From NCBI GenBank assembly GCA_027923505.1, contig BROI01000031.1:186001-250000 (forward strand): DNA of 64,000 nucleotides, read 5' to 3'. The notes beneath the pieces are model-generated. The model did no database searches. It was not told the DNA's origin and saw only the letters and a list, made by a program, of their open reading frames with translations. This stretch comes from Mayamaea pseudoterrestris. Taxonomy: Eukaryota. Positions 13,268 to 45,035 of this stretch are shown here, in pieces. A program made the translations under genes and the position numbers. Each line of letters opens with the position of its first letter. The first letter of the stretch is position 1.

Positions 13268-13478
13268 TGTTGGATCTAGAATATATCTTGCGCGCCCTTG
13301 AAGCGACACTAATGATTAAGCAGAACAGAGTCAATAAAACCACTTTACTTATTTTCTCCAAGAAGTGATCGTCCTCGATCCACTCCTTCGGTTGCCGCTT
13401 ACCGCGCTTACTTAAATGTGACCGTCTTCGTGACGTCACCGCTGCCGCTTCGGTTTGGGTTCTCATCCATGCTCAACA
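13268..13478 (-). repeat. 3' LTR of family A copy 1 (211 bp)
   Basis: TGTTGG...CTCAACA; reads identical to 39579-39789. Confidence 0.95.
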
Positions 13479-18202: not shown

Positions 18203-18393
18203 ACTCTGTTCTGCTTAATCATTAGTGTCGCTTCAAGGGCGCGCAAGATATATTCTAGATCCAACATTTTCTCCAAGAAGTGATCGTCCTCGATCCACTC
18301 CTTCGGTTGCCGCTTACCGCGCTTACTTAAATGTGACCGTCTTCGTGACGTCACCGCTGCCGCTTCGGTTTGGGTTCTCATCCATGCTCAACA
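18203..18393 (-). repeat. Rearranged 5' LTR of family A copy 1 (64 bp inverted)
   Basis: 18203-18266 is the reverse complement of 13268-13331; 18266-18393 matches 13351-13478 directly. Confidence 0.9.
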
Positions 18394-18803
18394 ATGCTGC
18401 TGATGCTGCTGTCACGGAAGCAGTCAAGCGTCGCCGTCAACAAGACAAGGCAACATACTCGAATCTGGTACTGCATGATAGAATGGTTCCAATAGTTCAT
18501 TCAAGTGTTGTGCTTTGCAAATTCGTCGAAGGCAAATCTTTCGTTTTTAGCAGCGCGGCGGAAAAGCGAAGAACTCCATCAGTCGCGGATCGGTTAGTCA
18601 CGTGACGGTTGTCGTAGCACGACTCACACGTGACGCAAAATCTATCTACAAACCGCGACGATCCTTCGTTGACTGCATAAAACGACGATGCGATACTCAT
18701 GCAGACGCAATGTGAAACTTACCCTTGGAGCCTGCATTAGACGTCTCATGGATTCGTTCACTTCATGATTCCACACTATTAAACAAAATATAGTAACTTT
18801 ATC

Positions 18804-22897: not shown

Positions 22898-24231
22898 TGT
22901 TTGGCATTTCAACAGTTTGCGGGCAAATTAGGGAAACGATCAAACTTTAAGGTAACGTCTTTTGCTTCTGGCACCTCTGAGCCTTCTTTCAACTGAAACT
23001 CATGCGCTTCCTTTATCTCTCCATCTTCGCAATATGAAGTAAAGTGAAAGCGTCGAGTGGATTGCCCAACAGCTGCTCGTCCTATGCAGCCATTGCCTCT
23101 TATTTTCTTGCAAATTAAGATCCTTGTCTCCTGATTAACTATTCTTATACAGCAGTCCAGGAAGCTGGCCAAAACGGACAATCTGGCGTGGAGTTCCTAG
23201 ATTGCGATCAAGCTTGCGGATCGCCAGATTTAGGCTGTAGACGTATGGCAGCAGCTGCAACTTGACAGTCTGTGTCATGCATCCTTCATAAGTAGTAACC
23301 TTCGAAATGGTGCGCAGGGAAAATATCAAGAATCGATTTTGCAGCGTGACGAATGTGGTTTTCAAAAACTCGCCATATTTTGCAACTTGTGAATAATCTG
23401 TCTTCTGGTCCATCAACATATCCGCATCATCTATATTAAGTATAACCGAGCTGTTGCCAAGCCACTCCTTGATCTCCCATGGATCAAAGATGTAACCTTG
23501 CTCATAAAAGGTTTCAAAAGCTTGTTGCCGGTTGTTGCATTGGCCCGGATCAATGCTTGCTTCAAATGCAATTCGCCGGCAAAGTGCTTGCAATGGATTA
23601 GACTTTTCTTCGTCTCGCACAAACGAGTGCTCACTATAACTGATATAGAGTACAGAGACCGGCATATGTGGAAGGTTGATGCCACGATTAATTTTGTTCG
23701 CAATTTCTTTCAAACTTCTTGACTTTCCACCGCCTGTGCATCGTACAACTGCCATTGTGCGTGCTTCATCATAATATTTTGTTAGTTCCTTCCTTATCGT
23801 CGCAGTGATGTTGCTCATCCAATCAGGCTCACAAACGAAGTTGGCAGGTTCGGTTTCGTTTATAACGGGCGGAAGTATAAGCTCCACATTTTGTAGTGAG
23901 CTGTAGTCAAATGTTTTGCCTTGTTCAGCTGTTGCATGATTCGTCGTCTCTGGATGCTCGTCAATCATTGAGTAAACATGTCTGCTCGTCAGCCTGCGAA
24001 AGTTATTTATGCCGACAACATCTTTGGTGTCTTTGTCACGCAAACAAGCCAGCGCATTTATTGCTAAGAACCTCTGTAATGATTTGGTGCTTGTCATGTT
24101 CACATCGACAATTGTTCCATTGCTGGCTTGGCATGTTATCGATTTGGTTTCGAAACTGCTTTGAACGTTGTTCCAAATTGCGAGAGGGAATAACAAAGCC
24201 TCGCGCATATTCAGCACAAACTAAGAGTGTA

Positions 24232-24415
24232 TGTCGTAAGTCAAATATACTGTGCTCCACACTGTAGGTAAAATATGGAATGCCACGGAATCGAACCATG
24301 GATAACCGGTTATACTACTCCTAATCATCCCACCCTACCTAGGATGCACCCCGTATATGACTACTGACCACAGACACTTGAGACGTTGAGTACCACGGGA
24401 TATCATATTCCGACA
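24232..24415 (-). repeat. 3' LTR of TRIM-like element (184 bp)
   Basis: Matches 37891-38074 except one C/T difference. Confidence 0.92.
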
Positions 24416-24511
24416 CCCTCCTTACTCCACGATCTCACAGTGAAATGACTTCTGTAGCTACCCGCTACTCACAAGTCAAAGTTCGGCGCTGCCTGCGACT
24501 CGAACCCTGGC

Positions 24512-24708
24512 TGATCGATCCAGTAATGGAGATGCTATTATGCTTATTGTGACTATGATATTACAGCCGAGAAAGATCCATTCTCGGGATTGCGGGATCT
24601 CAAGAGTCTCTTGGAGGATTCGCATAGGTAGATCCGGGATCAGCTATCCCTTCTCATTGCGCTTCTTGTTGAAGTCGCAGTCGTGTCGCATAGAGTCTCG
24701 ATACGACA
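24512..24708 (-). repeat. 3' LTR of gypsy element (197 bp)
   Basis: Reads identical to 37664-37860. Confidence 0.92.
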
Positions 24709-24881
24709 CTCTCCCCAACTGGTGGAGACGTTTACGTCTCTTCTTGACAATCTTTGTTGTTGCTTCTACAATATAACATCGCGACAGCCATCGTCTTGAG
24801 AGGGCCTTATTTAAATGACTCTTCAATGCGCGAGCCTTAGGGAAATTTGCTCAAACCCGTTGCTTCTTGCAATTTTGCTCG

Positions 24882-27800
24882 TCAAGCTCGATATGGTTTC
24901 AATTTCCGTATGTTTACTCGGTTGGTTACCATCGGCGTCAACTGAAGGGTAACTGTGCCATTGGTATGGACTTGTGTAATGGTGTAAGGGCCGATCCATC
25001 GCTCTTTAAGCTTGTCGGGATCGGGAATCTTCATCAAGACTTGGTCTCCTTGCTTGTAATCGTACGTCAAACGTCGTCGATTTGCTTTAATCAATGCTTC
25101 ATTGATCGCTGCTTCTCGCTTGTTTGTTATGGCCATTATATCCGCTATCAACGGAATGTCGAGATACATGTCTCTTTGGAATACGACAGCGCCTGGTGAT
25201 AGATTGTTGAGCGCCTTGCTCGCTGCTGCTCGAGTCGCATGCATCGCAGTTGCAAACGCTTGTTCCACAAGCTCTGTTACGTCCATTATCGCCTGCGGCG
25301 GGTGAGCGTGCATTAAGGTACGTATCACGTTGGCAATGGTTTGGTGTACTCGCTCGCAAATTGCGTTTGCTGTTGGATTCTTTACAGAAGTTGGACGCGC
25401 AACGATTCCATTGGCGTCAAGTAAACGACGAAACTCGCCGCGAAACTCGTTCCCTCTATCATGGATGACTCGCATTGGCCGTGGATAGCGTGCAAGCCAA
25501 TTGTTTTCAAAGAGCTGCGCTATTCTAGCAGCAGTGCGTCGATCGTAACGTACAATCTCAACGAGGTTGGTTACGGGGTCAATCATGGTCAACGCTTGGA
25601 AGGAATACTTGATTCCTTGTAACTTAATTTTCCACGGTCCTATTAGATCTATTTGTACTTCGTACCATGGTGCTTCTCGCACATCTCTTTGTGGTAGTTT
25701 TGTCCGTAATGCTGTCCTCCAGCTTTGTACCTTTGGCATGCGTCGCATTTGCCGACGATCGCCTCAATCGTTCGCCTCAATTGAGGATGATGAAAGTGTT
25801 GATTTATTGTAGCATCGAGCCTTGTCATCCCTGTGTGCGACAGAGACGTATGATACCATTGTATCAAAGGTTCAAGCATATTGGTTGGTATACAGATGCG
25901 CCAGGCAACTGGATTGTCGGGTGGTTCATATACAATCAATTGAACGTCATCAAACGCTCGCCATTTGACTGCCACAATTTGCTCATTCTGAACAGCTTCT
26001 CTAAGCTCCAAGTCTTCGTCTTGGTACGCGCGTATTGTGTTATATGATAATGGATGATTTCCTTCGTCGTCAAACGATGGATGGAGCAAAAAGCAATCTG
26101 CAAGCTCGTCGTCTTCAAGTAGACTCGTAGCGGCATCGTCGCTCGTTGTTGTTGTTCCATTAAGCTCTAATGGATTAAGACTCGTGCTTGTATTCTCCCC
26201 AACTGGAGAGGATGTACGGTTCGTTGGTGTTCTAGACAAAGCGTCGGCGACGGTATTGTCTTCTCCTTTACAATAGAAGAATTGCGGACCGTATTCCTCC
26301 AAATACAGTCTCCATCGCAGGACGCGCTGCGTTTGGTAAGTGGTTAACTCGTGAGTTAAGTTTTTATGGTCTGTATGTATCTGTATTACTGCTCCGAGGA
26401 GCATCGACCGGAACGTTTTCAACGTTTCAACAATGGAGAGGATCTCCTTTTCAATCGTTGTATAATTGCGTTGCGCAGTCGTCAACTTGCGCGAGTAGTA
26501 AGCAACTGGCACGCCGCCTTGCTTTATTACCGCTCCCAGCTGGTAATCAGAGGCATCTGTCTCTATTACAAAGGGTAAATTGTGTCGCTTGCCACCATCG
26601 CTTTCATTTGCTCAAACGCCTGTTGATGCTCGTCGTTCCAAACGAACGTTTTCGCTCCAGTTAAATTCGTTAACGGAGCAAGTATATGCGAGCGCTTCGG
26701 CCACATTGTTCTGTAGTAAGTTACCAGTCCGATAAAGGATCGCAGCTGCGATATGTTCTTTGGTGCGTCCATATCAAGGATCGCTTGAATCTTCTTGCGC
26801 CATGGTTTCAATCCAACTGGAGTGAGCCAATAACCCAACCAGTCGGTCTCCTTGACCGCCCATTCACACTTGAGTGGATTGATTGTAAAACCAGCCTCCT
26901 CGAGGCGAGTTAACACTTGCTCAAGCAGGGCAAGATGGTCGTTCCAATTGTCGCTAAAGCAACCGACGTCGTCAAGGTACTTTTCAACAGCTTCAATTCC
27001 TTTCAATACTCGTTCCATTATCTCTTGCGATACGTCAGTCGCTTGTTTAACGCCCATCGGCATTCGTTTATAACGATACAAGCCAAACGGCGTTGCAATC
27101 GTGCAGAGCTTGCTGCTCTCTTCGTCCAGCTCGAACGTGTAGTATTGCATGCTTATATCAAGCTTCGTGAAGAACTCATATCCTTTGCGCTTCGCTAGGA
27201 TATCTTGTATCCTCGGCAGAGGATATACCTTGCGCTTGATTACTTTATTAAGCGCTCGAAAGTCGGAAACAAAACGTACGGTACCGTCCTTCTTGGGGAT
27301 TATAAATGTGGGCGCCGCCCACTCGCTGCGTCCGCATGGTTCAAGGACTCCAATCTTTACGAGTCGATCCAGTTCAGCTTTAAACGTTTTCTCATGTACC
27401 TTCGGCACCGGATAGTGTCGTTTGTGTACAGGGACGGCGTCCTTGTCAACTTCCAAATGAACTTGTTCGTTGGGGTAATGGCCAAGCTTGCCAGAAAATA
27501 GATCAGGAAACTTATTGAGTAGCTCCAACAAGTCTTGTCGTTGCTCGTCAGTCAAGTGAGTAGCCTTGGCGACAACTTCATCGATATTCGCCTTGTCGTA
27601 CTTGGCTGCTTGTATTTCTGTTGCAAACGCCTCTTCGTCTGCATCCTCGCTCAAGCCGAGCAAGTATCTATTGAGCAGCGCATCGCGCACTTGTTTAGGG
27701 CGTCGACCCATTTGATTGAGCTCTTCGGCTCGCATCATTGGAGCGACATCGTCGTCCCACTTGATAACGTTGTCATTAAAGTCAATGATGAATTTCAATT

Positions 27801-28272
27801 CCTGTAATAAACCTCGACCGATGATCATGTCGTATGAGACATCCTTTTCAAACACGTGTGCTTTAAAGTCGCCAATCCGTTTCGATTGCGATAAATCGGG
27901 CATCGCCGCACTTGTTATGGTAACGATTCGAGAGCTTTCTAGCCTTCCTGCCAGTGTGTCGGATATCGTACGTCCTGTACTGGTCGTGCTCACTGCCGGC
28001 GGGAGAAGTCGCTGATTGATCCAAGAAGAAGTGGAACCTGAATCAAGGAGCGCAGTTAAATGTCGTTTAACTGGATGCCCGTTAACCTTGCCTACAACGA
28101 GTAGTACAACAGGCACGTAGTCATCAACGTTCTCGTTATTGTTATTATTGCTATCCTCAGCGTTCATCTGGTCGTCGCCAGTGCTATTAGACGCGATCTC
28201 GTCATCCTCAATACCGAAATCACCGATATAATGGTTGTCGTCCTCCTTCTTCTCCTCCTCGTGCTCGCCGAC
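24882..28272 (-). pseudogene. Gypsy pol (PR-RT-RNaseH-INT), frameshifts near 26580 and 25700
   Basis: SEWAAPTFIIPKKDG, DFRALN, RMPMG, YLDD, PVAYYSRKL, QIDLIGP, HDRGNEF, NAICERVH. The 26580 break looks like a short deletion in the RT-RNaseH junction. Confidence 0.9.
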
Positions 28273-28661
28273 AGTGAAGAATGCTTGATGCAATCTACTT
28301 GAGTACGATGAAAGGAGATGCTTTGTGAAATGCAACTGTTGCTTTATAGTGTTATGGACCAACCAGACTATCAGATTGTGAGCGAGATTTGAGCGAACAA
28401 GTTGCAAAACCATCGCCCGAGGCGTTGGGCGAAAACTACAGTTATGCATGCCAAACGGATTGCCTCAACTGATTCCCTATGTAATAATAGACCGTTTGAC
28501 AGTGTAACCATGCTTGCGAGAGGTTGGGGCATGCCTTTACTAGCAAGGCGTTGCCATGGTGAAGCAAGCAACATGAAGAACATTCCGACCACACATGATG
28601 GGTGTCGAAACGGACCCGGAGTACCGGAGAGATATGAACCCGATCCGAAGATACCTTAACT
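28273..28661 (-). repeat. 3' LTR of copia family B (389 bp)
   Basis: Reads identical to 36200-36588. Confidence 0.93.
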
Positions 28662-28757
28662 CGCCCTTGCGCTTGAATGCAGGCAAATAGGAACGGGAAT
28701 GTAAAATGTAGTTATTTGAATGTAGAGGTGTAGTGATGTAGAAGAAGCAGCAGGAGC

Positions 28758-31700
28758 TTAATTGTGTTGGACGCTTCTGCGGTTCTTGAGGAACACATCC
28801 TTGGAGAGACCCTTGGTGAGGTAGTCTGCCAGCTGATCGGCTGACTTAACCATGCAGATAGAGAATTCGCCTTGCTCATGGTGGCGCCAAAACCAATGGA
28901 ACTTGACCAACATGTGCTTGGTGCGGTTGGTGAGGCGCTTATTGACGGCAAGGTAGAAGGCGCCTTGGTTATCCTGGTAGGCACGAGCGCTCACGCAAGT
29001 TGCTGTAGGACTGGGAAGGCGGAGGGTCTGAAGGACTTCCATAAGGATGCGCTTGAGAGGGAGAAGGGCTTTAAGACCAAGGGAGAGTGCACAGTACTCG
29101 GCTTCCAGAGTTGAAAGGGCAATCTCGGTCTGTAGCTGGGATTTCCAAACAAGCGGGCAGCTACCGAGAAGAATGATGTAGCCTGTACGAGAGCGGACTG
29201 CTGTTGCAGAATGGTCGGGTTCCTGTTTATACAAACCAGCATAGTCGGCATCTGTATATAGATCAAGATTGAAGGAACCATTTGGCTTCATGACGGTGCC
29301 AATGGTGCGGGATCCCTTGAGGTAACGGACAATCGTTTTAACAGCTCTCGCATGAGTCTGCTTGGGACCGTGGTTGAAACGTGCCACTTGACTGACGGCG
29401 TAGGCAATGTCCGGGCGGGTATTGATGGCAAGATAGAGGAGCATGCCAACAACAGAAGGGTAGGACCAGCTTTCTTGCATGTAGGCTCCGTCGGGGTCGG
29501 TGCCAAGGGCAAGCTGGGTAGCAGGGACACTGTTGGGGTTGGACTCGGCAAGGCCAGTGGCAGTGATAATCTTGTCAATCAATCCTTGTTGGGTGAGAGT
29601 GTAGGTCCCTTTAGCATCATCACGTACAAGCTTGATGCCAAGGTACTCGCAAAGGGAGTCTTCCTGAGTGAGTTCAAGACCAAGGGACCGGAGCTTTGCA
29701 ACAAAGTCGTTGACAACCTTAGGAGTCTTGCCAATGATAGCTAAATCGTCCACATAGCACCCACACACTAGACCAAGGCCAAAGAACAAGCATTGGTCAA
29801 AGGAGCTTTGTATGAGACCAAGGCTTTTCAAGGCGCTGCACAGGTGTTGAAACCAGAGTCGGGGTGCAACGGACAAGCCGTAGAGGCTCTTCTTGAGGCG
29901 CAGGCAGTGGTTGGGGCCTTTGGTTGAGTTGAAACCTCGAGGAATGTGAATCCAAACTGGCTTATCCAACTCAGCTTGGACAAAGGCACTTGCAAAGTCG
30001 ACGGTGCAGGCATGCCAGTCAAGGGTCAGGGCAAACACTAGGAGGAGGCGAATGGTAGACCAGGCCACAACCGGGGCAAAGGTGTCAAATGAGCCTTCCT
30101 CAAGGTCACCACGGACACAGAAGCGAGCTTTGTATTTCTTGATTGTGCCATCGGGTGAACGCTTGCGGCGGAAGACCCAGGTGCCGGGGATGATCCTGCT
30201 CTTGGCCTCAGACTTGGGGACTTCAATCCATGTGCCTTTTGACTGTAGGGATGTGATTTCTCCTTCTGCAGCCTTGAGCCAGTGATCTCGGTGAGATACA
30301 TCGCACATTGCCTCATCCCAGGAAAGGGTATCAGGGTCAGAGGCAGCAGCTTTGTAAATGGCTGGCGCTGGGATGCGGAAGGCGGAATACAGGGAGGCAA
30401 AATGGGCATACTCAGCCACTTTTTCAGTGTAGGCGAACATGGCTGGAAGGCCAAGGCGCGGGTAGGTAAGTCGATCGGGTTGAACGCCAAAATTGGAGCG
30501 ACTAGAGCGTCTTGGTTCATGCTGTGTAGCTGGAGCCGGCGGAGGTGCAGGTGACGACGGAGGTGCGGATTCGTTCGCCCTTGGGTCGTGCAAAATGGGA
30601 GAGGGCGCCCTTGTTGGAGGCGGACTAGGCGCCCTTGCAGGAGGAGGACTAGGCGCCCTTGGAGGAGGCGAACTTGGCGCCCTTGTAGGAGGAGGACTGG
30701 GCGCTCTTGGTACCGCTAGCGTAGCTGGCGCCGGTGCTGGCGGGAGCTGTGCCCAGGTTGGCTCAGGAGGAGGAGGAATGGGAAGGACGCGAGGGGGACT
30801 GTTGCGTTCGAAGGCATTCTGTACCCTGTCGATCCTTTGACTTGCAGCTTCAGTAATGGGAGGTGTAGCATCATCCGGTGTTGCAGGCAGAGACTCGGGT
30901 TCGTCGGTTGGAATGTACTGGTAGGCGCTTTCGCCAAACATCTTGTCCCAGGCTGGGGTGTTGAAGTCAGGCAAACTGGACGGTTCCGAGGTAACTGTAG
31001 CAAACCAGTCATCAAAGACAACATGGAACTGTGGCGTAATAGCTCCTGTTGCAGGATTTAGGACCAAAGGGACAGAGCTGGCGTGACTGTCGCTCATACC
31101 CATGAAGATGCAGCGCTTGGAGCGGGGTGACCACCTTGGAAGCTTCTGGCCATCAGAAAGGCGCTTTTCAAGGACATACACTGGGCATCCCCATACATGG
31201 AGGTCATGGAACTTGGCTTGAGGCCAGCGAGTCCTGGTAAAGAGGTCATGGGGACTCACACCGCTTTGCAGGTCTGGCATCTTGTTCCAAAGGAAGACGG
31301 CGTAGCTGCAGGCCATGGGCCACAGATTAGGATCAGAGACTTCACTCCAGTGGATGGAGGCATGCAGCATCATAGCACGCGAGATGCTCATGATTGTTTG
31401 GATACTGCGCTCTGCAATGCCATTGTGATGGTGGGCTCCAGTGCCAGCAAACCTGCTAACTTGAGCAAAGGTGGACAAATGCTGCGCAAATGCTTGGGAG
31501 GTAAAGGCTCTTCCATTGTCTGAAAGATACTCTTGAGGAAGGACTCCAAAGTCACGGCATTTGAGCTCAAAGGCCTCCTTGGCTGCAAGCGTTTCGTCAG
31601 AATTGAGGTGCTTCTGGAACTCAATGTGGACAAAGCCAGTAGCATGATCCACAAAGATGCAACCACCACTGAAGAGCTCAGTTTCTTGAGACTTGCCTCT

Positions 31701-34700
31701 AGAGTTGAATAGGCGGCCTTTTGTAGAGCAAATGAAGTGGTCCACACTGACGCGCTGCCCTGGAAACAGATTGTCGCGCCGTAGGACACCCGCTCGGTCT
31801 TTAACTGCTTGAGACTGAATGCCTGGGGTTGCGCGGACCTTTTGCTTGGCATATTGACAGGCAGCACACATTGGAGGGTGAATGATGCGGGAGCTAAGGG
31901 CATGGAGCCTGCGCTGGGCCTCTGAATGGGAGAGGGTGCCACTGCGCATCAGGAACTGGATCCGGTTGAAGGCGAGATGGCCAAGGCGGAAATGCCATCT
32001 AAGGAGCTCCTTTTCAGACTCACTGAGGTTCTTGTTGATGTTTGAAAGGACGGAAGGAGCTGGGGTGACTGCAAGGCAATATGGAGAGCCTGGGGCACTT
32101 GGCGCGCCAGATGGTGGAGAAGAAGGCGGATCATGGTCTCGAGGGCCTTGTGGAGAACCAGGAGATGAGCCACTTGAGCCTCCTTCGCCTTGTGATTGGT
32201 CAGAAGGTGAGCTTGGCGCTGGACCAGGTGGAGGGCCAGGTGTTCCAGGATCGATGTAAAAGGCATTTGGGCCAGAATCATTGTCAATGGCGTAGGCAGT
32301 GGGCAAGTTTGAATCAGGATCCACCAAGACTTCAATCCCATTGTTGGTAATGGATCCATCCTCATGCGTGGTAGACTTGGTTCCACTTAGGTAGATAGCA
32401 TGCTCATCTCCATATATGAATTCCTCTGGGTATTGCTGCAGCAAGTTGGAGGTACTGAGCAACCGAACCTTTCCAGTAGGAACGTAATATGCAGGGAGTT
32501 TGAGGGTGCGCCGCATGCCTCCATTGTCAAGGAAGGTCCAGGCAACACATCCCCTGCCTGCAATGCGACCAGGTTGAAACAATCCATTGATAAATGCTCC
32601 CTCAGGAGGCGTTTCAATTGGACCAACAAAGTCAGAGCGGCATGGAGAAAGGGAGATGCTGGCGCCTGAATCCCAAATCACTTTGAACTGCTCTTCTTTA
32701 GCCTTGGGCTTAGAGTCAATGAAGTTAGGATTGCGGCGGATGGCTGCCAATGTCTGACGGATCCAGTCGGGCAATGCCTCTCGCTCAGAGGAGGAAAGGC
32801 TCAAGACGTAGGCAGAAGCAAGATAGCTAATGGGAGGGACGTGAACGGCGTCTGGTGATGGACTTGGCAGATGGCTTGGTCTCGTGCTGGGTTGACAAGT
32901 ATTCCCCCGTTTAGGATCACGGGAGGGGCTGCGAGACTGGTCTCTTCCAAGGGACTTGCCTTTACGGGAACGGCCTCGGCCTCGGCCTCGGCGGCCTCGA
33001 CGGCGGGATTTAGGGACTTGAGGGACTGGAAGAGGCGGCGGAGGAGGAGGAGCCACAGCAACACAGCGGTCGCACTTGTTGCGGCGCTGGCGGCGGCGGC
33101 GCTTGTTGCGGGGAGAGGCAGGTACATACCGAGGATATTGAGGATCCACATGGCCAATCATTGCATTTGGATCCAGGAGTGCCCGTTGAAGGTGTAAAGG
33201 GACAGTCGCAGGCCTCGCATGGCATCTTCCCCCGTTGGCAGGCCAGTAGGAGAGCCAGTAGGCAAAGTGCCGAGCAAACCACCGTGTGAGGCGCCGGTCA
33301 AAATGATCCATCAAAAGGAAGGCTTCCCACCAGACAGACCTTTGAATACCTCGCCAGGCAGTGCGACTCAAGGCGCGGTAGGCACGGTAAGGCAGGAGGA
33401 GGCGCCGCAAGTATGGGGCAGGTTGGCATCCAAGTAGGCCTCGACGAAGGCGGCGGTAGGCGGCGCGGTACCAGCAGCCGAGGAGAACCAATCCAGCAAG
33501 GAGGAACCACAAAATGAAAGGTTCAATGAGCTCCCAGTGCATCCAGTAGAAGAAGAGGGTGGCATGCACAAGGGAGAGGCTGGAGCTGGCGAGCTCAAGG
33601 AGCGAGGAGGCCAGAAGGGTGACGGCAGGCACAGGCACACCAATGGCTTCCTTAAACCGAGAGGCAGTCTCCTGAAGGTGAATGGTGGCGGTAGGCAAGG
33701 CAGGCTCAGGAACTGGGGTGAACACGGGCGGAAACCACTCATAAACTTGGCTGAGTGTAGGGCTTGGAGCTGGGGTCACAGCAGGGCGGAGAGCGACAAA
33801 CGGGGCAAATGCATCAGCCTTGGGAGCACACAGGCTCAAAAGGAGCAAGGTACCAACAGCAATCTTGGCAGACTTGGGGAACCGAGAGGGACTGCTGTGG
33901 GACCGAGCAGGGCGCTTTGCCTTGTTGGTGCTGGGAACGGTGGAGGCACTGTGAGTGGAGGCACTGTGACCGGATTCACTGTCAGATCCCCCGTCAAGGG
34001 TCAAATCCACAACCGTTTCAGTTAAATCAATGACAGTAGGAGCTGCAGCCACGGGAGGAGGAACTGTAGGAGGGCCATCAGGAATGATGCGAGGAGGCGC
34101 CACCCAACGGTTCACAAGTGGGGCAGCAACTGGGACAGTGGCAGGATCAGGCGACGGGGCAGACCAGCGCTTTTGGAACTCAACTTGCGCCAGGTTAACA
34201 TAAGGGACCACCCACTCATTGGGATCATGCACATTTGCAAGGTTTGCCTGATGAGTAGGAGGCTCCTTGGGTGGGTTCTTCATGGTGCGCGTGTCCTTGT
34301 GCTCCTTGGTGCAATGGGTGCCATACCGAGTGCAATAGCCACACCAGAGCTTGGAGTCCTGGTTGGAGGAGGAACGGCCCTTTTTGCCGTTGGAGGAGCG
34401 GTTGTTGTTGCCTTTGTTGCCCTTGCCATTATTGTTCTGACGGGAGGAGTTGCCTTTGCCTTGGTTGCCTTGATTGCCTCGACCAGAACCAGAATGGGAG
34501 GGCTTGCTGGGTCCACCGGAGCCACCACCGTTGGAACCACCATCCTTCTTCGGGTTGAAATGCTCATCCTTTTTGGGGCAGTCGGCAATTTGGTGCGCCA
34601 TGGAACCGCATACAAAACAGCCGCGCTGGGCAAGGGTGGAGCGGGAGGAGCTCTGGGACTTGGTATTGAGCTCGAGGAGATTGGCTTGGGGAACCCGCGA

Positions 34701-36068
34701 ATCCGTGCGGTTGCGGGCAGGCTGCCACAATTGCTTGGAGCAGAGGACGTCATAGGAGGCAATGGCATCAGCAAACAGGTCTTCAGGCAGGCACCGCTGT
34801 TCCGCCATGTAGAAATGCCGTTCACTTTCACGCATGGGGCGGAGCTCTAGGCGGGCCTTATAGTAACGCTTTTTGAAGGGGTAAAGCGCCTCACGGAAGG
34901 CCAGCTCACCAGGGTTTTCCTTCAAACACTCGCCTCCTGCGGTGTTTAGGGCCATGATGAGCTCCTCGGTGGTATCATGATTGTAGGTGCAGGCATTGAA
35001 GAGAGGCTTGAGCTTGTCCAGTACAGCGGTCGCATAAGCAGTGATGTTTTGGCCTGCAAAAGCTTGGGGACGGATGGCCACCGCCTCCCGTTCAATGCGG
35101 TGGTGAACCTCGCGGTTGTGCTGGCGCATCATTGACATGACACGGGAAAAGGTGATGACAAAGGGCTCCTTCTTGCCACCGGGCGTCTGGTACATGAGGC
35201 GCTTGAGCAACTCGGAATCAATGGAATTGCGAAGGAATGTGGTGGCTTCATCATCATTGGCCTCATCATAAGGGTCCCAGGTCTTCTTGGGTCCCTCGAG
35301 ATGACGGATGACCTCGTCGGTGGTCAAGAAAAGCCCACTGTGCTTGATAATGGAGACGGTTTGCTTGTCATCCAAAGGGTGATCAAGGTGCACAATGGTG
35401 TCCATTCCATGGGTGACGAGATGCTCCTCAACCTGCATTTCCCAAGCGAGCAGGTCGCCCTTTAAGGACAGCTTTTGCGACAGTCCTTTGGTACGGGCAT
35501 TCCAACCGGTGAGCTTGGCATCATCAAACCGGAGGCGAGCCAATGGAGACGGACGGATGGTGTAGGCCGGCTGAGGGAACTCGGCAAAGTCACGGGCCGG
35601 CTCACCGCCAGTGTAGGGGATGTACTTCTTTTCCAATTTGCAAAGTGCACCGTGCACTGGTTTAGGGGGGCGATCCGCATCCACGGCTGCCGCCAAGGCG
35701 CCTGGATCTTCAGGCGGCTCGTCTGCCGGCGGGGCAGGAGGAGCAGGCGGGGCAGGAGGCGCTGGAGCTGGAGGAGCTGGAGGCGCCGGAGGGGCTGGAG
35801 GAGCAGGAGCAGGCGGCGGGACGGGCGCCGGAGCTGGAGCGGGAGCGGGAGCAGGAGCTGGAGCGGGAGCGGGAGCGCGGGGAGGTGTAGGCCATGGCTT
35901 GCCTCCAACCTTTGGAGACGGCGTCGGGGGTTCCTCTCCATCCTTTGGAGCAGGGACTGGACCCTCTCCATCCTTTGGAGCAGGGTTGCGCTTTTTCTTG
36001 GGGAGGACGGGCTGAAACGGATCCTCGGCCGGTTCAGTGTCTTGGGGAGCAGTAGTAGGTGTCGACAT
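28758..36068 (-). CDS. Copia family B Gag-Pol polyprotein (2436 aa, single ORF)
   Basis: Pro/Ala-rich N-terminus; CFVCGSMAHQIADC knuckle; hydrophobic insert; VIWDSGAS protease; WHFRLGH...CAAC; integrase VSVD/SDNG/NGIAER; RT KYKARFCVRG, LYGL, YVDD; RNaseH YTDAD/STLEAEY/QDNQG/LADYLTK. Confidence 0.96.
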   Translation of the reverse strand: MSTPTTAPQDTEPAEDPFQPVLPKKKRNPAPKDGEGPVPAPKDGEEPPTPSPKVGGKPWPTPPRAPAPAPAPAPAPAPAPAPVPPPAPAPPAPPAPPAPPAPAPPAPPAPPAPPADEPPEDPGALAAAVDADRPPKPVHGALCKLEKKYIPYTGGEPARDFAEFPQPAYTIRPSPLARLRFDDAKLTGWNARTKGLSQKLSLKGDLLAWEMQVEEHLVTHGMDTIVHLDHPLDDKQTVSIIKHSGLFLTTDEVIRHLEGPKKTWDPYDEANDDEATTFLRNSIDSELLKRLMYQTPGGKKEPFVITFSRVMSMMRQHNREVHHRIEREAVAIRPQAFAGQNITAYATAVLDKLKPLFNACTYNHDTTEELIMALNTAGGECLKENPGELAFREALYPFKKRYYKARLELRPMRESERHFYMAEQRCLPEDLFADAIASYDVLCSKQLWQPARNRTDSRVPQANLLELNTKSQSSSRSTLAQRGCFVCGSMAHQIADCPKKDEHFNPKKDGGSNGGGSGGPSKPSHSGSGRGNQGNQGKGNSSRQNNNGKGNKGNNNRSSNGKKGRSSSNQDSKLWCGYCTRYGTHCTKEHKDTRTMKNPPKEPPTHQANLANVHDPNEWVVPYVNLAQVEFQKRWSAPSPDPATVPVAAPLVNRWVAPPRIIPDGPPTVPPPVAAAPTVIDLTETVVDLTLDGGSDSESGHSASTHSASTVPSTNKAKRPARSHSSPSRFPKSAKIAVGTLLLLSLCAPKADAFAPFVALRPAVTPAPSPTLSQVYEWFPPVFTPVPEPALPTATIHLQETASRFKEAIGVPVPAVTLLASSLLELASSSLSLVHATLFFYWMHWELIEPFILWFLLAGLVLLGCWYRAAYRRLRRGLLGCQPAPYLRRLLLPYRAYRALSRTAWRGIQRSVWWEAFLLMDHFDRRLTRWFARHFAYWLSYWPANGGRCHARPATVPLHLQRALLDPNAMIGHVDPQYPRYVPASPRNKRRRRQRRNKCDRCVAVAPPPPPPLPVPQVPKSRRRGRRGRGRGRSRKGKSLGRDQSRSPSRDPKRGNTCQPSTRPSHLPSPSPDAVHVPPISYLASAYVLSLSSSEREALPDWIRQTLAAIRRNPNFIDSKPKAKEEQFKVIWDSGASISLSPCRSDFVGPIETPPEGAFINGLFQPGRIAGRGCVAWTFLDNGGMRRTLKLPAYYVPTGKVRLLSTSNLLQQYPEEFIYGDEHAIYLSGTKSTTHEDGSITNNGIEVLVDPDSNLPTAYAIDNDSGPNAFYIDPGTPGPPPGPAPSSPSDQSQGEGGSSGSSPGSPQGPRDHDPPSSPPSGAPSAPGSPYCLAVTPAPSVLSNINKNLSESEKELLRWHFRLGHLAFNRIQFLMRSGTLSHSEAQRRLHALSSRIIHPPMCAACQYAKQKVRATPGIQSQAVKDRAGVLRRDNLFPGQRVSVDHFICSTKGRLFNSRGKSQETELFSGGCIFVDHATGFVHIEFQKHLNSDETLAAKEAFELKCRDFGVLPQEYLSDNGRAFTSQAFAQHLSTFAQVSRFAGTGAHHHNGIAERSIQTIMSISRAMMLHASIHWSEVSDPNLWPMACSYAVFLWNKMPDLQSGVSPHDLFTRTRWPQAKFHDLHVWGCPVYVLEKRLSDGQKLPRWSPRSKRCIFMGMSDSHASSVPLVLNPATGAITPQFHVVFDDWFATVTSEPSSLPDFNTPAWDKMFGESAYQYIPTDEPESLPATPDDATPPITEAASQRIDRVQNAFERNSPPRVLPIPPPPEPTWAQLPPAPAPATLAVPRAPSPPPTRAPSSPPPRAPSPPPARAPSPPPTRAPSPILHDPRANESAPPSSPAPPPAPATQHEPRRSSRSNFGVQPDRLTYPRLGLPAMFAYTEKVAEYAHFASLYSAFRIPAPAIYKAAASDPDTLSWDEAMCDVSHRDHWLKAAEGEITSLQSKGTWIEVPKSEAKSRIIPGTWVFRRKRSPDGTIKKYKARFCVRGDLEEGSFDTFAPVVAWSTIRLLLVFALTLDWHACTVDFASAFVQAELDKPVWIHIPRGFNSTKGPNHCLRLKKSLYGLSVAPRLWFQHLCSALKSLGLIQSSFDQCLFFGLGLVCGCYVDDLAIIGKTPKVVNDFVAKLRSLGLELTQEDSLCEYLGIKLVRDDAKGTYTLTQQGLIDKIITATGLAESNPNSVPATQLALGTDPDGAYMQESWSYPSVVGMLLYLAINTRPDIAYAVSQVARFNHGPKQTHARAVKTIVRYLKGSRTIGTVMKPNGSFNLDLYTDADYAGLYKQEPDHSATAVRSRTGYIILLGSCPLVWKSQLQTEIALSTLEAEYCALSLGLKALLPLKRILMEVLQTLRLPSPTATCVSARAYQDNQGAFYLAVNKRLTNRTKHMLVKFHWFWRHHEQGEFSICMVKSADQLADYLTKGLSKDVFLKNRRSVQHN

Positions 36069-36185
36069 GCTTCTTGCAGGGTATGGAGCTTGATATCAAA
36101 GGCTTGTTGGCTTGTTTAAACGGCGGCGTCCCGACGTAAAAGGAATCGTTTGCTTGAGGGAAACGTTGGCGTGTAAGGCTTTAAC

Positions 36186-36199
36186 TTGGGCTCGTAACC
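36186..36199 (-). other. PBS of copia family B, complementary to the anticodon arm of initiator tRNA-Met (half-tRNA type)
   Basis: GGTTACGAGCCCAA abuts the LTR and resembles the GGTTATGGGCCCAG PBS of Drosophila copia. Confidence 0.7.
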
Positions 36200-36588
36200 A
36201 GTGAAGAATGCTTGATGCAATCTACTTGAGTACGATGAAAGGAGATGCTTTGTGAAATGCAACTGTTGCTTTATAGTGTTATGGACCAACCAGACTATCA
36301 GATTGTGAGCGAGATTTGAGCGAACAAGTTGCAAAACCATCGCCCGAGGCGTTGGGCGAAAACTACAGTTATGCATGCCAAACGGATTGCCTCAACTGAT
36401 TCCCTATGTAATAATAGACCGTTTGACAGTGTAACCATGCTTGCGAGAGGTTGGGGCATGCCTTTACTAGCAAGGCGTTGCCATGGTGAAGCAAGCAACA
36501 TGAAGAACATTCCGACCACACATGATGGGTGTCGAAACGGACCCGGAGTACCGGAGAGATATGAACCCGATCCGAAGATACCTTAACT
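36200..36588 (-). repeat. 5' LTR of copia family B (389 bp)
   Basis: Direct repeat of 28273-28661. Confidence 0.93.
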
Positions 36589-36593
36589 CCGAC

Positions 36594-37663: not shown

Positions 37664-37860
37664 TGATCGATCCAGTAATGGAGATGCTATTATGCTTATT
37701 GTGACTATGATATTACAGCCGAGAAAGATCCATTCTCGGGATTGCGGGATCTCAAGAGTCTCTTGGAGGATTCGCATAGGTAGATCCGGGATCAGCTATC
37801 CCTTCTCATTGCGCTTCTTGTTGAAGTCGCAGTCGTGTCGCATAGAGTCTCGATACGACA
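37664..37860 (-). repeat. 5' LTR of gypsy element (197 bp)
   Basis: Direct repeat of 24512-24708. Confidence 0.92.
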
Positions 37861-37890
37861 CTGGCCCTCCTTCCCGTAGGCTTTCCACCA

Positions 37891-38074
37891 TGTCGTAAGT
37901 CAAATATACTGTGCTCCACACTGTAGGTAAAATATGGAATGCCACGGAATTGAACCATGGATAACCGGTTATACTACTCCTAATCATCCCACCCTACCTA
38001 GGATGCACCCCGTATATGACTACTGACCACAGACACTTGAGACGTTGAGTACCACGGGATATCATATTCCGACA
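37891..38074 (-). repeat. 5' LTR of TRIM-like element (184 bp)
   Basis: Direct repeat of 24232-24415; followed on the minus strand by a TGG-starting PBS. Confidence 0.92.
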
Positions 38075-38953: not shown

Positions 38954-39578
38954 ATGAAGGAAGACTTGATGGAAATGTCTCGCCGCGAGCGCGTCATGCA
39001 GCTGCATGAGAGTCCCTTGTTCATGTCGAATGAATGGGCTATTCAAACAGTCCTTGCAGGAGTCGCCATCACCATCATTGGTTTGCTCATCCTCTACTCG
39101 ACCTTTTCGGCTCTGGTAGAACGCACGACTGTATCAAGCACTCCAGTATTGACCAAGCGTCGATTGGCTTATCAAGCGACGAATCTACTGGTGAATTGCT
39201 TCCTCGGCTTGTCGGGAATATACTGCGAGTTCTTTGTCAAGCCAAGCGACACGCAGCTCCAAGTCGAGCAAGTCATTACAAACTACAATCACTTTCAATT
39301 CTTTGGAAACTTTCAACTCGGATATCAACTTTGGGCCATTCCAGTCGGAATTTGGTGGGTCTCAGAGTCTACTCCCATGCTCATTCATCATTGTGCTACC
39401 ATTCTAGTGGCCACCATGAGCTCCTTCTGCACCAATGGCTTTCGCTACCATGCATCGTTCTTCTACGGACTCATTGAGATTACCAGCGTTCCACTTTCAG
39501 TCATGAACACTTTCAAGGACCATCCGACTTGGATTGAGAAACATCCGCTGGTATACTTGGCTGTGCGATTGGTATTTG
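38954..39578 (+). pseudogene. TLC (TRAM/LAG1/CLN8) domain membrane protein, 3'-truncated by family A copy 2
   Basis: Several TM segments; GYQLW, MLIHH and FFYGLIEITSVPL motifs; ORF runs into the LTR at 39579 and no continuation is visible beyond the element. Confidence 0.8.
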
Positions 39579-42500
39579 TGTTGGATCTAGAATATATCTT
39601 GCGCGCCCTTGAAGCGACACTAATGATTAAGCAGAACAGAGTCAATAAAACCACTTTACTTATTTTCTCCAAGAAGTGATCGTCCTCGATCCACTCCTTC
39701 GGTTGCCGCTTACCGCGCTTACTTAAATGTGACCGTCTTCGTGACGTCACCGCTGCCGCTTCGGTTTGGGTTCTCATCCATGCTCAACACACTCCTTTGG
39801 GCCGAGTAGTACTTACTGCTCGAGGCCAGATTCATAACCAGGTTGCGGAGCTTGCCAAACTGGGCTCCCTGCAATGGTTTCGTGAAGAAATCCGCGACCA
39901 TGTCTCCGGTCGGACAATGCTCAATGTTGACTTCACCAGCTGCCACGCGATCTTTCACAAAGAAGTACCGAACATTCATGTGTCGCGTGCGCTTTGTACT
40001 TGAGCTTCTGCCATTCTTTTCCAACAGCATTGAACTCATATTGTCTTGATACAATTTCGTGTCTTTGACCCCGAAACCTTGCGCCTTCAGAAAATATCCT
40101 GTCCACAGCAACTGCGGTAGCCATCACGAACTCCACAACTTCGCTCTCCGTCGAGCTTCTTGTTACCAACTTCTGTTTAGCCGACGTACTGTACACTGAT
40201 CCTTGGCCAAGTGTCATTGTTCCACCAGTGTGACCCTTCATGTCTGGGTGCACCGCGTACGACGCATCCACCCACCACTGGACTATCCCGGACTGGTCCG
40301 CCTTCAGCGTCAACACCATGTCCACGCTTCCGCGTAAATATTTAATCACTCTTGCAGCCTTCTTATAGTCGTCTTCGTCAGGCTGCTGCAGCCTCGTGCT
40401 CAAGAAAGAAATCGCTGTGCGAATATCCGGTCGCGCTCGCTGACTCAGATACAGACACTGCATCACAATCGTCACAAAAATCTGCTTCTTCGCTTCGCTC
40501 AACATGACAGGATTTTCCGATATCTGAAACAAGTGACTGGCTGCCGGGTAGCTGCCGTTCCATCCATGTCGTCTGGCGCATGATGCAGGATGTTCTTCAC
40601 ATAGTCAACCATGTTGATTGCTACTTCTCCAGGCTTAGTATGGTCAATACCATGCCGAGGTAGTCGTGCACTTTTCCGCGTGACTTATTCATTGGAGTCT
40701 CCTTGCCAAACTCCTCATCCATCTGCGCGATGAACTCATCCACTACGCTCACGTCGACGTGCGAAATCTTCAAATCGTCCACGTGCCATCCCACGGTGAT
40801 TTGCTTCCCATTGACAATCTTGTTGCACACACACGGATCGTACGGGTTCTTCTCGAAGCCCCACTCAAGCAATTTTGCGGACAACTTCTCCCAGAATAGT
40901 CGCGCTGCTCGAAGCGTACCATAAAGCGCCATGAGTAATTCAACATACATGACTTTCTCGCCATTCTCCATTGTGACGCAAGGCTCGTACATCTCGCGAT
41001 CAATTTCCAACAGTAGCTCCACCATCTTCCCAGTGAAACGAACGTGCACCAACTCATCCATTTCCGCTTGCATGAAAGCACCCGGTACATCAACCACAGC
41101 AACCTCGCGCCCTTCCATAGCGTCAATGATGGCTGTCAGAAAGATGGCCTCTGTCGCTATCGTTGGAGATGCTGCGTCTTCCTTTGCAGTGTATGCTCGT
41201 TGCTTGCGTCCATCCGCGCATCCGCGTCCCTTCACAGTCCCGCATCTCTTGCGCTTGAGAAACATCAAATACGCCAGAGCGTCCTTGCGCTGCTGCGGAG
41301 TCAGAGTGCATTGGGGGACTGCCTTCATGACGTGCCTGTCGTGTAGCTGCTGCATTTCCTTGCGCACTGCCTCCACTCCAGCATCGCCAAAAGCCTTTAA
41401 ACCTTGTCGCATATTCATCTGTGCCGTGACGAGTGGCTCCGACACTTCCTCTGCAGCGTCGAGCGTGAACAAATGAGCGAACGAGCGAGGTTTGCGCGCA
41501 CGCAGGCCATACCGACCAGTGCGTGGGCCATAGCGCGCATCGAAATCCTCTTCGTCTGCAGCAGCTGGCACTCCTTCAATTTCGCCTTCATCGGGCACTC
41601 CTTCAATTTCGCCATCATCCACGGCTGGCGCGTCGTCAAGTTCGCCGTCAATGGCCTCACCATCCTCGTCGTTCGGCACTCCTTCGATTGCGCCGTCAGC
41701 ACCATCGTCGTCGTCGTCGTCGTCATCGGTCGCATTCACTCCTTCGCTTCCGCCGGCAGAGTCGTCGTCACCGCGAGAAGCGTCGTCATCATAATCAGAG
41801 TCATCATCATCCTCGGCGTCATCTTCGTGCCACATGACTGGCTCAGCAGCCTCCGCAACACGGTGGCGGTCCACGACCACGATGCCCCGATTGGCCTTCT
41901 GTTGACGAGCGAGACGATGCACGCGCTCAATGACATCATCAGGCATGGGCAAAGGCGTCGCGTGCCCACGATTCAGAACTTTGCCCGAAGACAAACTGAG
42001 AAATAAAACCCACCCTGCACATTACCAGTCGGGCGCAGAGCCAGCGCACCGATCGTGCGCGCCTGCATGTCATTGCTGTGCGACTCATGCGTTTGCACAT
42101 ACTGACCAAATTCATACTTGCAATGCCGATTAAAGTCAACTGTCTGACCAGTCACAATAGTGCGTGGACTGAGATCCTTCGAAATGCCACGCTCGTTCGG
42201 AAACGCATTCAGCAAAACACGGCAGACTTCGTCATTTCGATAACCAAGCGTGCCGGCACGTGCTTAAATGGCAACGTGTTGTATGTCGCGCGCACCCGTT
42301 CTTTCACGACACGGATAAAACGTTCAATTTCGCCAACGTGTTCATCCTCAGATGTCGCATTGAGCGCCACTCCGAGATCAGCCAACGCGCCAAGCATTGG
42401 AGCGAACTCCCCATCCATCAGAGCCGCGACGACACGGAACCCACCGCGTGCGTAAATCTTCAACACAGACTCGATTGCCTTCAACATAACCGGAAGCGTA

Positions 42501-44683
42501 CGGTTTTGAATCACCTCAACCGTAGCAAAACGAATGCTGCGGGAGAACGTCACCAACATAGGGACTTTGTTGATATACATGATGTCAGCACAAAGAGTAA
42601 CGTCTCGATAGCGACTCATGATAGCCGGTGGAAGCTGCTCAACAATCGCAGGCTTCACCAGATGCGACGCGCGACGCGTCGTCTTTCCTTTTAACGAGCC
42701 AACATCTGGTCCAAAGATGTGCTCAGCAGCCAGGATGTCGGCCTTCGTCACAGGACAGTTCGGCAACTGATTGCTAGTAACGATGCGCAGGTAATCCTTG
42801 AGGCTTGGCCGTCAACTCTTCACTTGCAGTTCCCTAGCTCTAACAGCGCGTAAATAGTCATCATTGGTGTAGTTAGTACGGTTATCGTCTACCGTAGTCA
42901 ACATCGCCACTCCATCCTTGACATCGCTGCGCTTGCCCTTCGAAAAGCTCTCGCAAACATACAGCCCAGAGTCAGTCTCGACAAACTCTCGCTGCTTACC
43001 ATCCGGCTTCTCCACAACGAACATTGGACGATCCACGCCGTGCATGAGATACTCCACGGTAAACTTCTTGCGGACTTGCGCCAAACTCAAAATGTTCGCC
43101 AGTCCCTGCGGATACCACCACACCGGACCATAGCCCTCCAGGTCGCCCATCATGTTCGTCCTTACTGTACCAGCGTTGCGCCAGTCACCATCCACGTTGG
43201 CACCGGGCGAATGTTCGTCAGCATCTTGGCGTTGCAGAACAGATCCACTGTCGACTGATTGTCCAAGAGCACAGCCTTCTTCGAGATGTTCACCTTCGGC
43301 GGCTGCGCGAACATGTATCCGACCTCATCGTCGTCATCGCTTTCTTCCTCGCTACCCAGCGTGAAGTGCTGCGCCCCACTAGCCTCTGCAGCCGGCGCAC
43401 TCTCCGTAGACTCCGTTCTCGTAGGACAGTCTCGCTGCACATGACCAACCTGTTGACAGGTCCAGCATCTGGGAGGGTCACGCGCTGTACCAGTCGTGTG
43501 AAACGCCACGCCCTCGTTCGTTGGCAACGTGGCTTCTCCATCCGCATGCTCACGACGCTGCATGATGTTGTATGCATCGTGGATCGTCAACGGGAAGTTG
43601 TCGTGCCCGTCGAGGTAGCAGTTGCGCAAGTGCTTGCAATACCCAGCGTATTCGCCCGTTGCGCCACGCACGAAAAGCATCGCAAGCTCGAGCTCTTCGG
43701 CGGCCTTGATATCCTCCTTGTTCGCCTTGTTACGATTGTCATCCTTGGCAATGTTCAACGCCACAATCTCGTTGTGCATCGTGACGCCAACCGCCTTCGC
43801 CACGTCTGCCAGCGTGACCATGCTTTCGTAATATTTCTGCAGGCTTTCGCGCGCTCCTTGAGTACGTCCGAACAACTCAGCTTGAATGTCCACGACTTGA
43901 TCCACAAGTTTGCAGCGCCCTTCGTACGTATGCGAGATCTCCTTGATAATCGCCAGCAACTTAATTCCGTCCGTGTCCTCCTCGGCGTCTCGGAACTTGG
44001 CGTGCGACTTGACACGATCCTTCATACGCTCCGTGCATTGTCCATGCAACACGGCGTAGAGACCAGCGAGGAAGTCGGGTATACACGCACGCGCTCGACA
44101 TGCTCTTTCTTGTCGGCCTTGTATTCCTCGAGCATTATGGACCAGTCCGAGTCCGTCGTGTCGGCATCCTTCGTTGGACGTGCAGGCTCGTCAGGAATCT
44201 CCAGTTCCACGTTGCGCATGCCCTTGAGCAGCTCCTTGGTATATTTCTTGTAGGAGCGCCCGACGAAAGTGATGATCTCGTTCGTCGTACGGATGAATCC
44301 ATCGGGATCGCGCGAACCGTTATAGTCGTAGATGAATCCAGCGAGCGTCGGCTCGCTTCCTTGGAAATTTCCACTCGGCGCACGACTCGGTCCGTTGAGT
44401 CTGTTACCATTGCCTTGATTCCCGGAACGATTCCCAGCACGATTCCCACGACGATAATGACGGTTGCGTCGGTTTCCTTCGCTTGCTGGCGGAGCGGGAG
44501 GTGCACCTCCACCGCTCGACGCCGCTCCTGTCGTCGGAGTATTGCTCGTCGAAGACATGTCTTTTCACTCGCTTCTTGGAGAAAATGTTGGATCTAGAAT
44601 ATATCTTGCGCGCCCTTGAAGCGACACTAATGATTAAGCAGAACAGAGTCAATAAAACCACTTTGCTTATTTTCTCCCAGAAG
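39579..44683 (-). mobile_element. Ty1/copia family A copy 2: full 3' LTR 39579-39789, 5' LTR reduced to 98 bp (44586-44683), no TSD
   Basis: Near-identical to 13268-18393; gag ATG at 44558; several frameshifting indels; left flank ATTTG is not repeated on the right. Confidence 0.93.
44572..44586 (-). other. Putative self-priming PBS of family A
   Basis: Minus-strand ATTTTCTCCAAGAAG is the perfect reverse complement of CTTCTTGGAGAAAAT in the full LTR (13351-13365); no TGG tRNA-type PBS. Confidence 0.7.
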
Positions 44684-44740
44684 CTAGTAATGTAGTACTA
44701 GCATAAGATTGGTTCTGTGTATCAAAGTCGGCAATGACAT

Positions 44741-45035
44741 CTACTTCGCCTCTCGATCAGCCGTCTCCAACCTTTTCTGAGCGTTCCACTGCTTTTGCTC
44801 CGACTTGGAGAAAACCTTTCCATTGTTTTGATTCTCCATGTAGATCCAGACTCCCTGATTCAATAAGTGTGAGTGCGGACGAGCGACGATTGGACGGTGC
44901 GAATGCGTGGACCCAGTTCCTCATTGCCAAATGATAAACGAATGTACTTACAGCACCAACGACAGCGACTGCCCACGCGGCGAGCCTTCCGCCTTTACCT
45001 AGCCCTGCGCTAAATACATTGTTCACCGGGCTCAT
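44741..45035 (-). CDS. Small 65-aa single-TM protein, 2 exons (intron 44855-44951)
   Basis: GTAAGT...CAG intron in phase 0; product MSPVNNVFSAGLGKGGRLAAWAVAVVGAGVWIYMENQNNGKVFSKSEQKQWNAQKRLETADREAK. Confidence 0.75.

Follow-up and report, generated by a model that had tools for sequence, protein, structure and literature searches.

A Ty1/copia retrotransposon whose primer-binding site covaries with its own LTR: a candidate case of Tf1-like self-priming

To our knowledge, bench proof that a retrotransposon primes reverse transcription with its own RNA exists only for gypsy elements of the Tf1 type: self-priming is established for Tf1 and Tf2, and is predicted for the Tf1/sushi group of Ty3/gypsy chromoviruses. 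In Tf1, the 11 bases at the start of the RNA are described as pairing with the primer-binding site (PBS), after which RNase H cleaves the RNA between positions 11 and 12 (PMC7175516). Tf1 is also reported to make insertions that are independent of integrase, often truncated, and guided by homology to the primer (PMC11042837). Among Ty1/copia elements, the PBS of copia, Ty5 and Osser is reported to match a segment from within the initiator tRNA-Met (PMC6317226). Self-priming as a concept is not new for copia, as it has been predicted from sequence for the plant TAR lineage, including Houba and Osr-1 (PMC6317226); the original prediction for the element described here, which knew of no copia precedent, was outdated in this respect. 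The TAR study treats green plants only, and the words 'diatom', 'Phaeodactylum' and 'stramenopile' occur 0 times in its text (PMC6317226). The fungal GalEa copia elements are described as lacking a tRNA-type PBS and carrying a 'Conserved Hairpin Site' at its position; the site is a short local palindrome, for which the authors found no complementary LTR sequence (PMC5445492). Finally, the CoDi copia elements of diatoms (Blackbeard, Surcouf, PtC34) come from a paper that does not discuss priming: its text contains neither 'tRNA' nor 'priming', and the one 'PBS' in it is a buffer (PMC2806351).

The window, by which we mean the whole stretch of 64,000 nucleotides analysed, holds two Ty1/copia LTR retrotransposon copies of one element, A and B, both on the minus strand. 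Aligned over 4,938 bp, the two share 99.45% identity and differ by 16 mismatches and 10 gap openings; each has a broken reading frame. On the element strand the LTR measures 211 bp and runs TGTTG…CAACA. Complete 3' LTRs are present in copy A (13268–13478) and copy B (39579–39789), and one public sequencing run yields a contig of exactly 211 nt that covers 39579–39789 and ends at branch points. Copy A as a whole spans 13268–18393 and is flanked by AGCAT on both sides (13263–13267 at its 3' side, 18394–18398 at the other), the 5-bp duplication expected from integrase. A purine-rich tract, AAAGGAGTG (13479–13487), which is probably the polypurine tract, adjoins its 3' LTR, and the junction between internal region and 3' LTR, AGGAGTG followed by TGTTG, is kept in relatives. 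Copy B carries an internal region (39790–44571) with a leader, a gag with a zinc knuckle, and a pol with an RVT_2 domain, in a frame interrupted by single-base gaps; its gag ATG (44559–44557) lies 12 nt after the PBS position.

These features place the element in Ty1/copia (Pseudoviridae). The reverse transcriptase (RT) of its ORFs is RVT_2 (E 8.5e-17), the gag zinc knuckle lies upstream, and RVT_2 was also found in all three intact relatives examined. The TG...CA ends of the LTR and the 5-bp target duplication of copy A are likewise features of Ty1/copia. We considered membership in Tf1/sushi, which would entail RVT_1 and an integrase after the RT–RNase H region, and rejected it, as the RT is RVT_2 and the polyprotein stops just past RNase H. 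No Pfam match to an integrase (rve) domain was obtained in the element or in the relatives tested; a PDB sequence search for integrase gave 0 matches, and hhalign against the integrase region of the window's other copia element returned a probability of only 0.2. Some 700 residues between the zinc knuckle and the RT have no domain assignment, and no space is left after RNase H.

The sequence that follows the 5' LTR finds its partner within the LTR itself. On the element strand, a 15-nt word, CTTCTTGGAGAAAAT, stands between …GATCA and AAGT…, directly after TCA, at LTR positions 114–128, with its first base 98 nt from the LTR end. The PBS position of copy B, ATTTTCTCCAAGAAG, read from 44586 down to 44572 on the minus strand and beginning with the last A of the 5' LTR, is its exact complement (15/15). 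The word occurs exactly at 13351–13365, 18266–18280 and 39662–39676 on the minus strand and at 44572–44586 on the plus strand; the TCA before it lies at 13366–13368 in the 3' LTR of copy A and at 39677–39679 in that of copy B. A further occurrence, at 44669–44683 on the minus strand, has one mismatch and lies in the truncated 5' LTR of copy B. The original prediction had listed the two occurrences in the 3' LTRs, with the exact complement 98 nt from the LTR end after TCA and the single mismatch in the truncated LTR, and all its coordinates were confirmed. It had also described both copies as rearranged at the motif, and this holds as well: copy A has undergone an inversion and a deletion there, and the 5' LTR of copy B is cut at the word. 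An intact 5' LTR–PBS unit is absent from both copies. Copy B's own 5' word has one mismatch to the copy B PBS, and its 5' LTR has a second mismatch 8–9 nt beyond.

Such a repeat might be the work of chance, or an artefact of rearrangement or assembly without function. Both window copies are indeed rearranged at it, and copy B differs from short-read contigs by nine single-base gaps. However, the word or its complement is matched 5 times in the window where 0.19 matches are expected, and 0 of 100 shuffles reach 5. In addition, a contig from one run spans gag, PBS and U5 into the word just as copy B does, and the same architecture recurs in 30 independent metagenome loci and in none of their shuffles (below). 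Taken together, these results leave chance or an artefact with next to no probability.

Relatives were gathered by a protein search with the pol ORF, which gave 987 at E ≤ 1e-10 among 8,000 candidates scored. One of them (P0043) is named for Nitzschia sp., and the second of the Atlas clusters is labelled Bacillariophyta, a phylum recorded for 3 of its members only. For a gene flanking the element, the Atlas offered just 'Eukaryota' and bacterial hydrolase clusters. In having such relatives, the element resembles the diatom CoDi elements, and its lineage is probably a Ty1/copia type found in diatom-like sequences; the five published primers for Blackbeard, Surcouf and PtC34 (PMC2806351) have 0 matches in the window at up to 3 mismatches. 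A scan of metagenome contigs, built on an alignment of 24 sequences, then provided 66 loci of 39–71% amino-acid identity. All 66 (275 kb) were searched in an unbiased manner for inverted repeats with exact arms of at least 13 nt and loops of 30–350 nt. This search found 35 repeats. In 28 of them, one per locus, the second arm starts on the final A of '…CAACA' or directly behind it. When the 66 loci were dinucleotide-shuffled twenty times, each round held 0–3 repeats, and none with that placement at the LTR end. Two positives were added to the 28: L039, whose arms lie at opposite contig ends, and L038, with 17-nt arms and a 27-nt loop.

Thus 30 of the 66 loci hold an LTR end beside their own leader, and all 30 pair perfectly, at 40–64% amino-acid identity to the window's pol. 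The 36 loci outside this count comprise 34 that stop short of the leader by their match coordinates, one (L040) in which the junction of LTR end and leader is present but the contig stops before the expected LTR word, and one (L044) with a degenerate 5' region. In 23 loci the start of a 3' LTR is followed by other sequence, and there no repeat placed at the LTR end was found with 2 mismatches in 15 allowed, as expected where a 3' LTR abuts host DNA; these loci serve as an internal negative control. Terminal poly(A) or initial poly(T) was found in no locus among the metagenome relatives.

With the window's element included, perfect pairing over 14–17 bp is seen in 31 of 31 testable elements; as metagenome contigs often fuse the 3' LTR to the leader through assembly collapse, the two arms in each belong to one family, though maybe not to one copy. 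These 31 elements carry 26 distinct word pairs, and when a word is set in register against a PBS that is not its own, the mean is 6.3 matches of 14, versus 14 of 14 for cognate pairs. In 27 elements the final A of CAACA is the first base of the second arm, and in the other 4 the arm begins directly after that A; the loops range from 27 to 205 nt. From an unfitted MAFFT alignment of 21 elements, RNAalifold predicts the terminal helix, with 12 of its 12 pairs changed on both sides. The broken cells of that alignment are mostly gaps. Single-sequence folds close the helix in 10 of 10 elements, with z-scores of -2.2 to -6.1. A conserved second hairpin 3' of the primer, comparable to the U5-IR of Tf1, was also considered and dropped, as small hairpins proved inconsistent among 28 folded elements.

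Judged by these comparisons, the complementarity between LTR and PBS is not due to chance. The original prediction had expected compensatory LTR and PBS changes in related families, and the 26 pairs and the RNAalifold helix provide them; its reading of the element as tRNA-independent and Tf1-like is supported by the same perfect pairing across all testable elements. We consider self-priming by the 5' end of the element's own RNA, in the manner of Tf1, to be the best explanation and a probable one. The covariation strongly supports this reading, within which the RNA start and the RNase H cut are presumed parts.

Other primers deserve consideration. The window also contains a second, distant copia element, 24% identical over RT-RH, and the word after its LTR resembles a half-tRNA PBS. 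Because of this likeness, both priming styles seem to coexist in one genome, and a host tRNA or tRNA half could in principle prime the present element too, in the manner of copia, Ty5 and Osser, with the LTR match being secondary. Half-tRNA priming is described as common in Ty1/copia (PMC6317226), and the element shares with copia, Ty5 and Osser both its superfamily and a PBS directly after the LTR. Unlike in those elements, however, the PBS words here vary between families and match their own LTR. A conserved host tRNA cannot explain this pattern, because it could not have followed 26 PBS words, each with its own LTR match; tRNAs are far too conserved. Moreover, the PBS does not begin with TGG, ARAGORN found 0 tRNA genes within the window, and Rfam gave no match in the PBS/LTR region. 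On comparative grounds, a matching tRNA fragment is probably absent from the host, and priming by tRNA is very unlikely.

The helix could instead be a structural RNA element that closes R-U5, with a role in packaging, dimerisation or translation control, while another primer binds nearby. Retroviruses are known to enclose the PBS with closing stems, the GalEa paper mentions a stem-loop of Rous sarcoma virus (PMC5445492), and our folds do display a closed R-U5 domain. Yet the second arm sits at the sole position that defines the LTR end, at its last A or right after it in all 31 elements (27 and 4, respectively). The sequence 3' of that arm is not conserved and has no TGG-type site, so a separate primer site is not visible. 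A purely structural helix is therefore unlikely, and we return to self-priming in what follows.

For the word to act as a primer in the Tf1 manner, the RNA would have to start at or near it. In the elements compared (n = 31), TCA, or at a minimum CA, stands before the word, with CCA, GCA or TTA in place of TCA in 6 of them. An initiator-like consensus, TCAH+1W, has been proposed for Phaeodactylum, with the +1 at the base after TCA (PMC4686930). It is present in 25 of the 31 elements with its +1 no more than 1 nt from the start of the word; the host here is a presumed diatom. The motif is also loose, being reported in 67.9% of P. tricornutum upstream regions (PMC4686930). A second line of evidence comes from copy B, in which homology to the 5' LTR stops exactly at the first base of the word. 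We infer that the first transcribed base is the one that follows TCA in the LTR.

A scheme of self-priming can then be proposed. The first 15 nt of the RNA, CUUCUUGGAGAAAAU, would fold back over an R-U5 loop of 83 nt and, as complementarity and covariation indicate, form a duplex with the 15-nt stretch whose first base is the final base of the 5' LTR. If the element works as Tf1 does, its RNase H would cleave the RNA where this duplex ends, and reverse transcriptase would extend the 3' end so released across U5 and R. DNA synthesis would next transfer to the 3' R, where the word is still present. The pattern among relatives further suggests that plus-strand synthesis renews the PBS as a copy of the primer word. 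Such copying back would explain why the two arms are never mismatched while families diverge.

The element thus resembles Tf1 and Tf2 of S. pombe in having a PBS beside the 5' LTR that is complementary to the presumed start of its own RNA. It differs from Tf1 in its RVT_2 rather than RVT_1 reverse transcriptase, in a duplex of 14–17 bp instead of 11, and in a pairing, known here from sequence comparison, that takes in the last base of the LTR in 27 of the 31 elements. With TAR, Houba and Osr-1, alongside which we set it by their published description, it shares membership of copia and a self-priming mechanism predicted from sequence. Unlike the local palindrome of GalEa, its PBS is matched by a word farther away in the LTR, where the RNA presumably starts.

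Our literature search, outside which lay most subscription journals and the Repbase reports, found no account of self-priming in copia elements of diatoms or other stramenopiles, and within the literature searched the present lineage appears undescribed. Elsewhere in copia, self-priming has been predicted from sequence for a single plant lineage; another copia lineage, in an unrelated host and with unusually clean covariation over 26 pairs, strengthens the case for repeated origin or spread. Public runs cover the family at high read depth, and intact single ORFs occur in related metagenome loci. A broader possibility, which we put forward tentatively and regard as rather doubtful, is that a whole, still active copia lineage of diatom-like algae has swapped tRNA for Tf1-style priming, independently of Tf1/sushi and of TAR. 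PBS finders based on tRNAs will mis-annotate such abundant algal elements, and self-priming explains why. Should the host prove to be a transformable diatom, self-priming in copia could also be tested with this family.

We regard the two copies in the window as defective by-products; were this broader view correct, both would be natural fossils of the mechanism. Copy A reads, in order, U3, the word, the last 63 nt of U5 reverse-complemented, and gag from about codon 18. Its 5' LTR portion (18266–18393; family D9) consists of U3 (18281–18393) and the word (18266–18280), followed by the inverted piece (18203–18265). The interval 18280–18203 equals 44572–44649 of copy B on the opposite strand at 100%, and the leader, the gag ATG and a PBS in sense orientation are absent. 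Read from its sequence, copy A is an inversion with the 15-nt inverted repeat as breakpoint, plus a deletion of the leader and gag ATG. It could have arisen either through reverse transcriptase switching templates at the inverted repeat, the origin it would have on the broader view, or through later DNA recombination. These rearranged copies suggest that the primer/PBS inverted repeat may itself give rise to aberrant cDNAs.

Copy A also bears on whether the priming word acts in cis. In a trans version, the PBS would pair with the word of a second RNA packaged alongside, or with that of the 3' R copy. The word is present in both R copies, and the order of copy A (U3, word, antisense U5) is the one expected if a word still joined to U3 had been extended on a PBS. 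DNA-level recombination between the inverted repeats explains copy A equally well, however, and while cis and trans priming are inseparable by sequence, the short loops (27–205 nt) favour fold-back. We consider trans priming improbable and self-priming in cis the preferred reading.

Copy B has a different history. Its truncated 5' LTR (44586–44683; family D11, 98% identity) is a 98-nt stretch that probably corresponds to R-U5; U3 is missing, and the LTR begins at the word. The copy has no target duplication. We compared it with contigs from four public runs, and in two runs of one study a contig links 39582 to 44685 through 293 other letters, with the element absent. Copy B is therefore a polymorphic insertion that replaced host sequence. 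At its right junction the host match and the LTR end share 4 nt (39579–39582); at the left, the host match restarts at 44685, and a single extra base, 44684, which is G when read on the element strand, precedes the LTR. This G could be a cap-templated base, an assumption we make from the general behaviour of reverse transcriptases.

The same runs indicate which arrangement is typical of the family. A 3,534-nt contig from one run covers pol, gag, PBS and U5 and continues into the word in the orientation of copy B, from which it follows that copy B's order of U5 and PBS, and not copy A's, is the family norm. Element depth far exceeds flank depth, at about 1,180 versus 40 in one run (X2), figures that are not copy numbers. 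Relative to copy B, the contigs have one extra base at nine places. Eight of the nine are found in all four runs; in the ninth the extra base is at 42210, except in one run (X3), where it is at 42212. The frameshifts of copy B are thus private to it or assembly errors.

A minus strand that ran to the 5' end of an uncut RNA, without a second strand transfer, would have the order R-U5-PBS…U3-R-U5, which is that of copy B. Copy B accordingly has the appearance of a cDNA that was inserted without integrase and whose left end corresponds to the 5' end of the RNA. On the broader view above, it would be a captured cDNA that had run to the capped 5' end of the RNA, with the extra G at its left, a 4-nt microhomology at its right junction and 293 bp of host DNA replaced. 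Like the integrase-independent insertions of Tf1, it is truncated and without a target duplication; unlike those guided by the primer, it has no PBS homology in its downstream flank. A separate observation concerns the other side of the insertion, where an exact 11-nt PBS-like word occurs in host DNA at 44804–44814 on the minus strand, 121 nt upstream of copy B, against 0.02 expected per window.

The gag-pol frame of copy B, the proposed self-priming Ty1/copia element on the minus strand at 39579-44683, is broken because copy B lacks a single base at each of nine places between 40121 and 44078 when set against short-read contigs. The extra base is present in all four runs at eight of these places; at the ninth, its position in public run X3 differs by 2 nt. 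The nine gaps stem either from private mutations of copy B or from assembly errors in the window. Among these runs, X3 and X4 are small, with 14-16 million letters of contigs, and were compared over window positions 39400-44900. The summed depth of the element in X3 and X4 runs to thousands, against about 6.5 for the X4 flank contigs, and these depths are not to be read as copy numbers.

On one side of copy B, host DNA and the LTR end overlap by 4 nt (39579-39582), and on the other (44684-44685) one extra base, a G on the element strand, stands between the host and the first base of the LTR. In one contig from each of two runs, the element is replaced by 293 other letters. The junctions of copy B look integrase-independent. 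The surrounding host DNA also holds an exact 11-nt PBS-like word, TTTTCTCCAAG, on the minus strand at 44804-44814. This word is oriented like the element's own PBS and lies upstream of the truncated LTR of copy B, at a distance of 121 nt. Only 0.02 matches to such a word are expected per window; its presence may be due to chance or may be tied to the mode by which copy B was captured.

In the putatively self-priming lineage more broadly, the pol frame continues past the start of the 3' LTR for about 70 nt (13408-13487 in the window, minus strand). The junction AGGAGTG/TGTTG, which consists of a short purine tract and the LTR start, is itself coding (…RSVL…) and is kept across relatives; the metagenome loci for both features are L001, L021, L023, L029, L035, L040, L052 and L063. 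At another related locus, L038 (1914-1976), the gap from the primer word within the LTR to the PBS is only 27 nt, so that R plus U5 amounts to about 44 nt, an extremely small length among LTR elements.

The window also carries a second copia element (28272-36589, minus strand), with a 2,436-aa ORF and identical repeats of 391 bp. Domain matches in this ORF are gag_pre-integrs, SH3_retrovirus and RVT_2, and by reading of the sequence the LTR ends are AGT…ACT and the target duplication is GTCGG. Its 5' LTR is followed by GGTTACGAGCCC, which we take to resemble, with one base different, the half-tRNA type of PBS known from copia, Ty5 and Osser. Across RT-RH, the second copia and the self-priming element share only 24% identity. 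Two repeat blocks, at 24231-24715 and 37664-38074, flank both this element and a gypsy-type ORF with an RVT_1 match (26566-28449, minus strand). The order of the two blocks is swapped between these positions, an arrangement that points to a putative nested or rearranged gypsy element.
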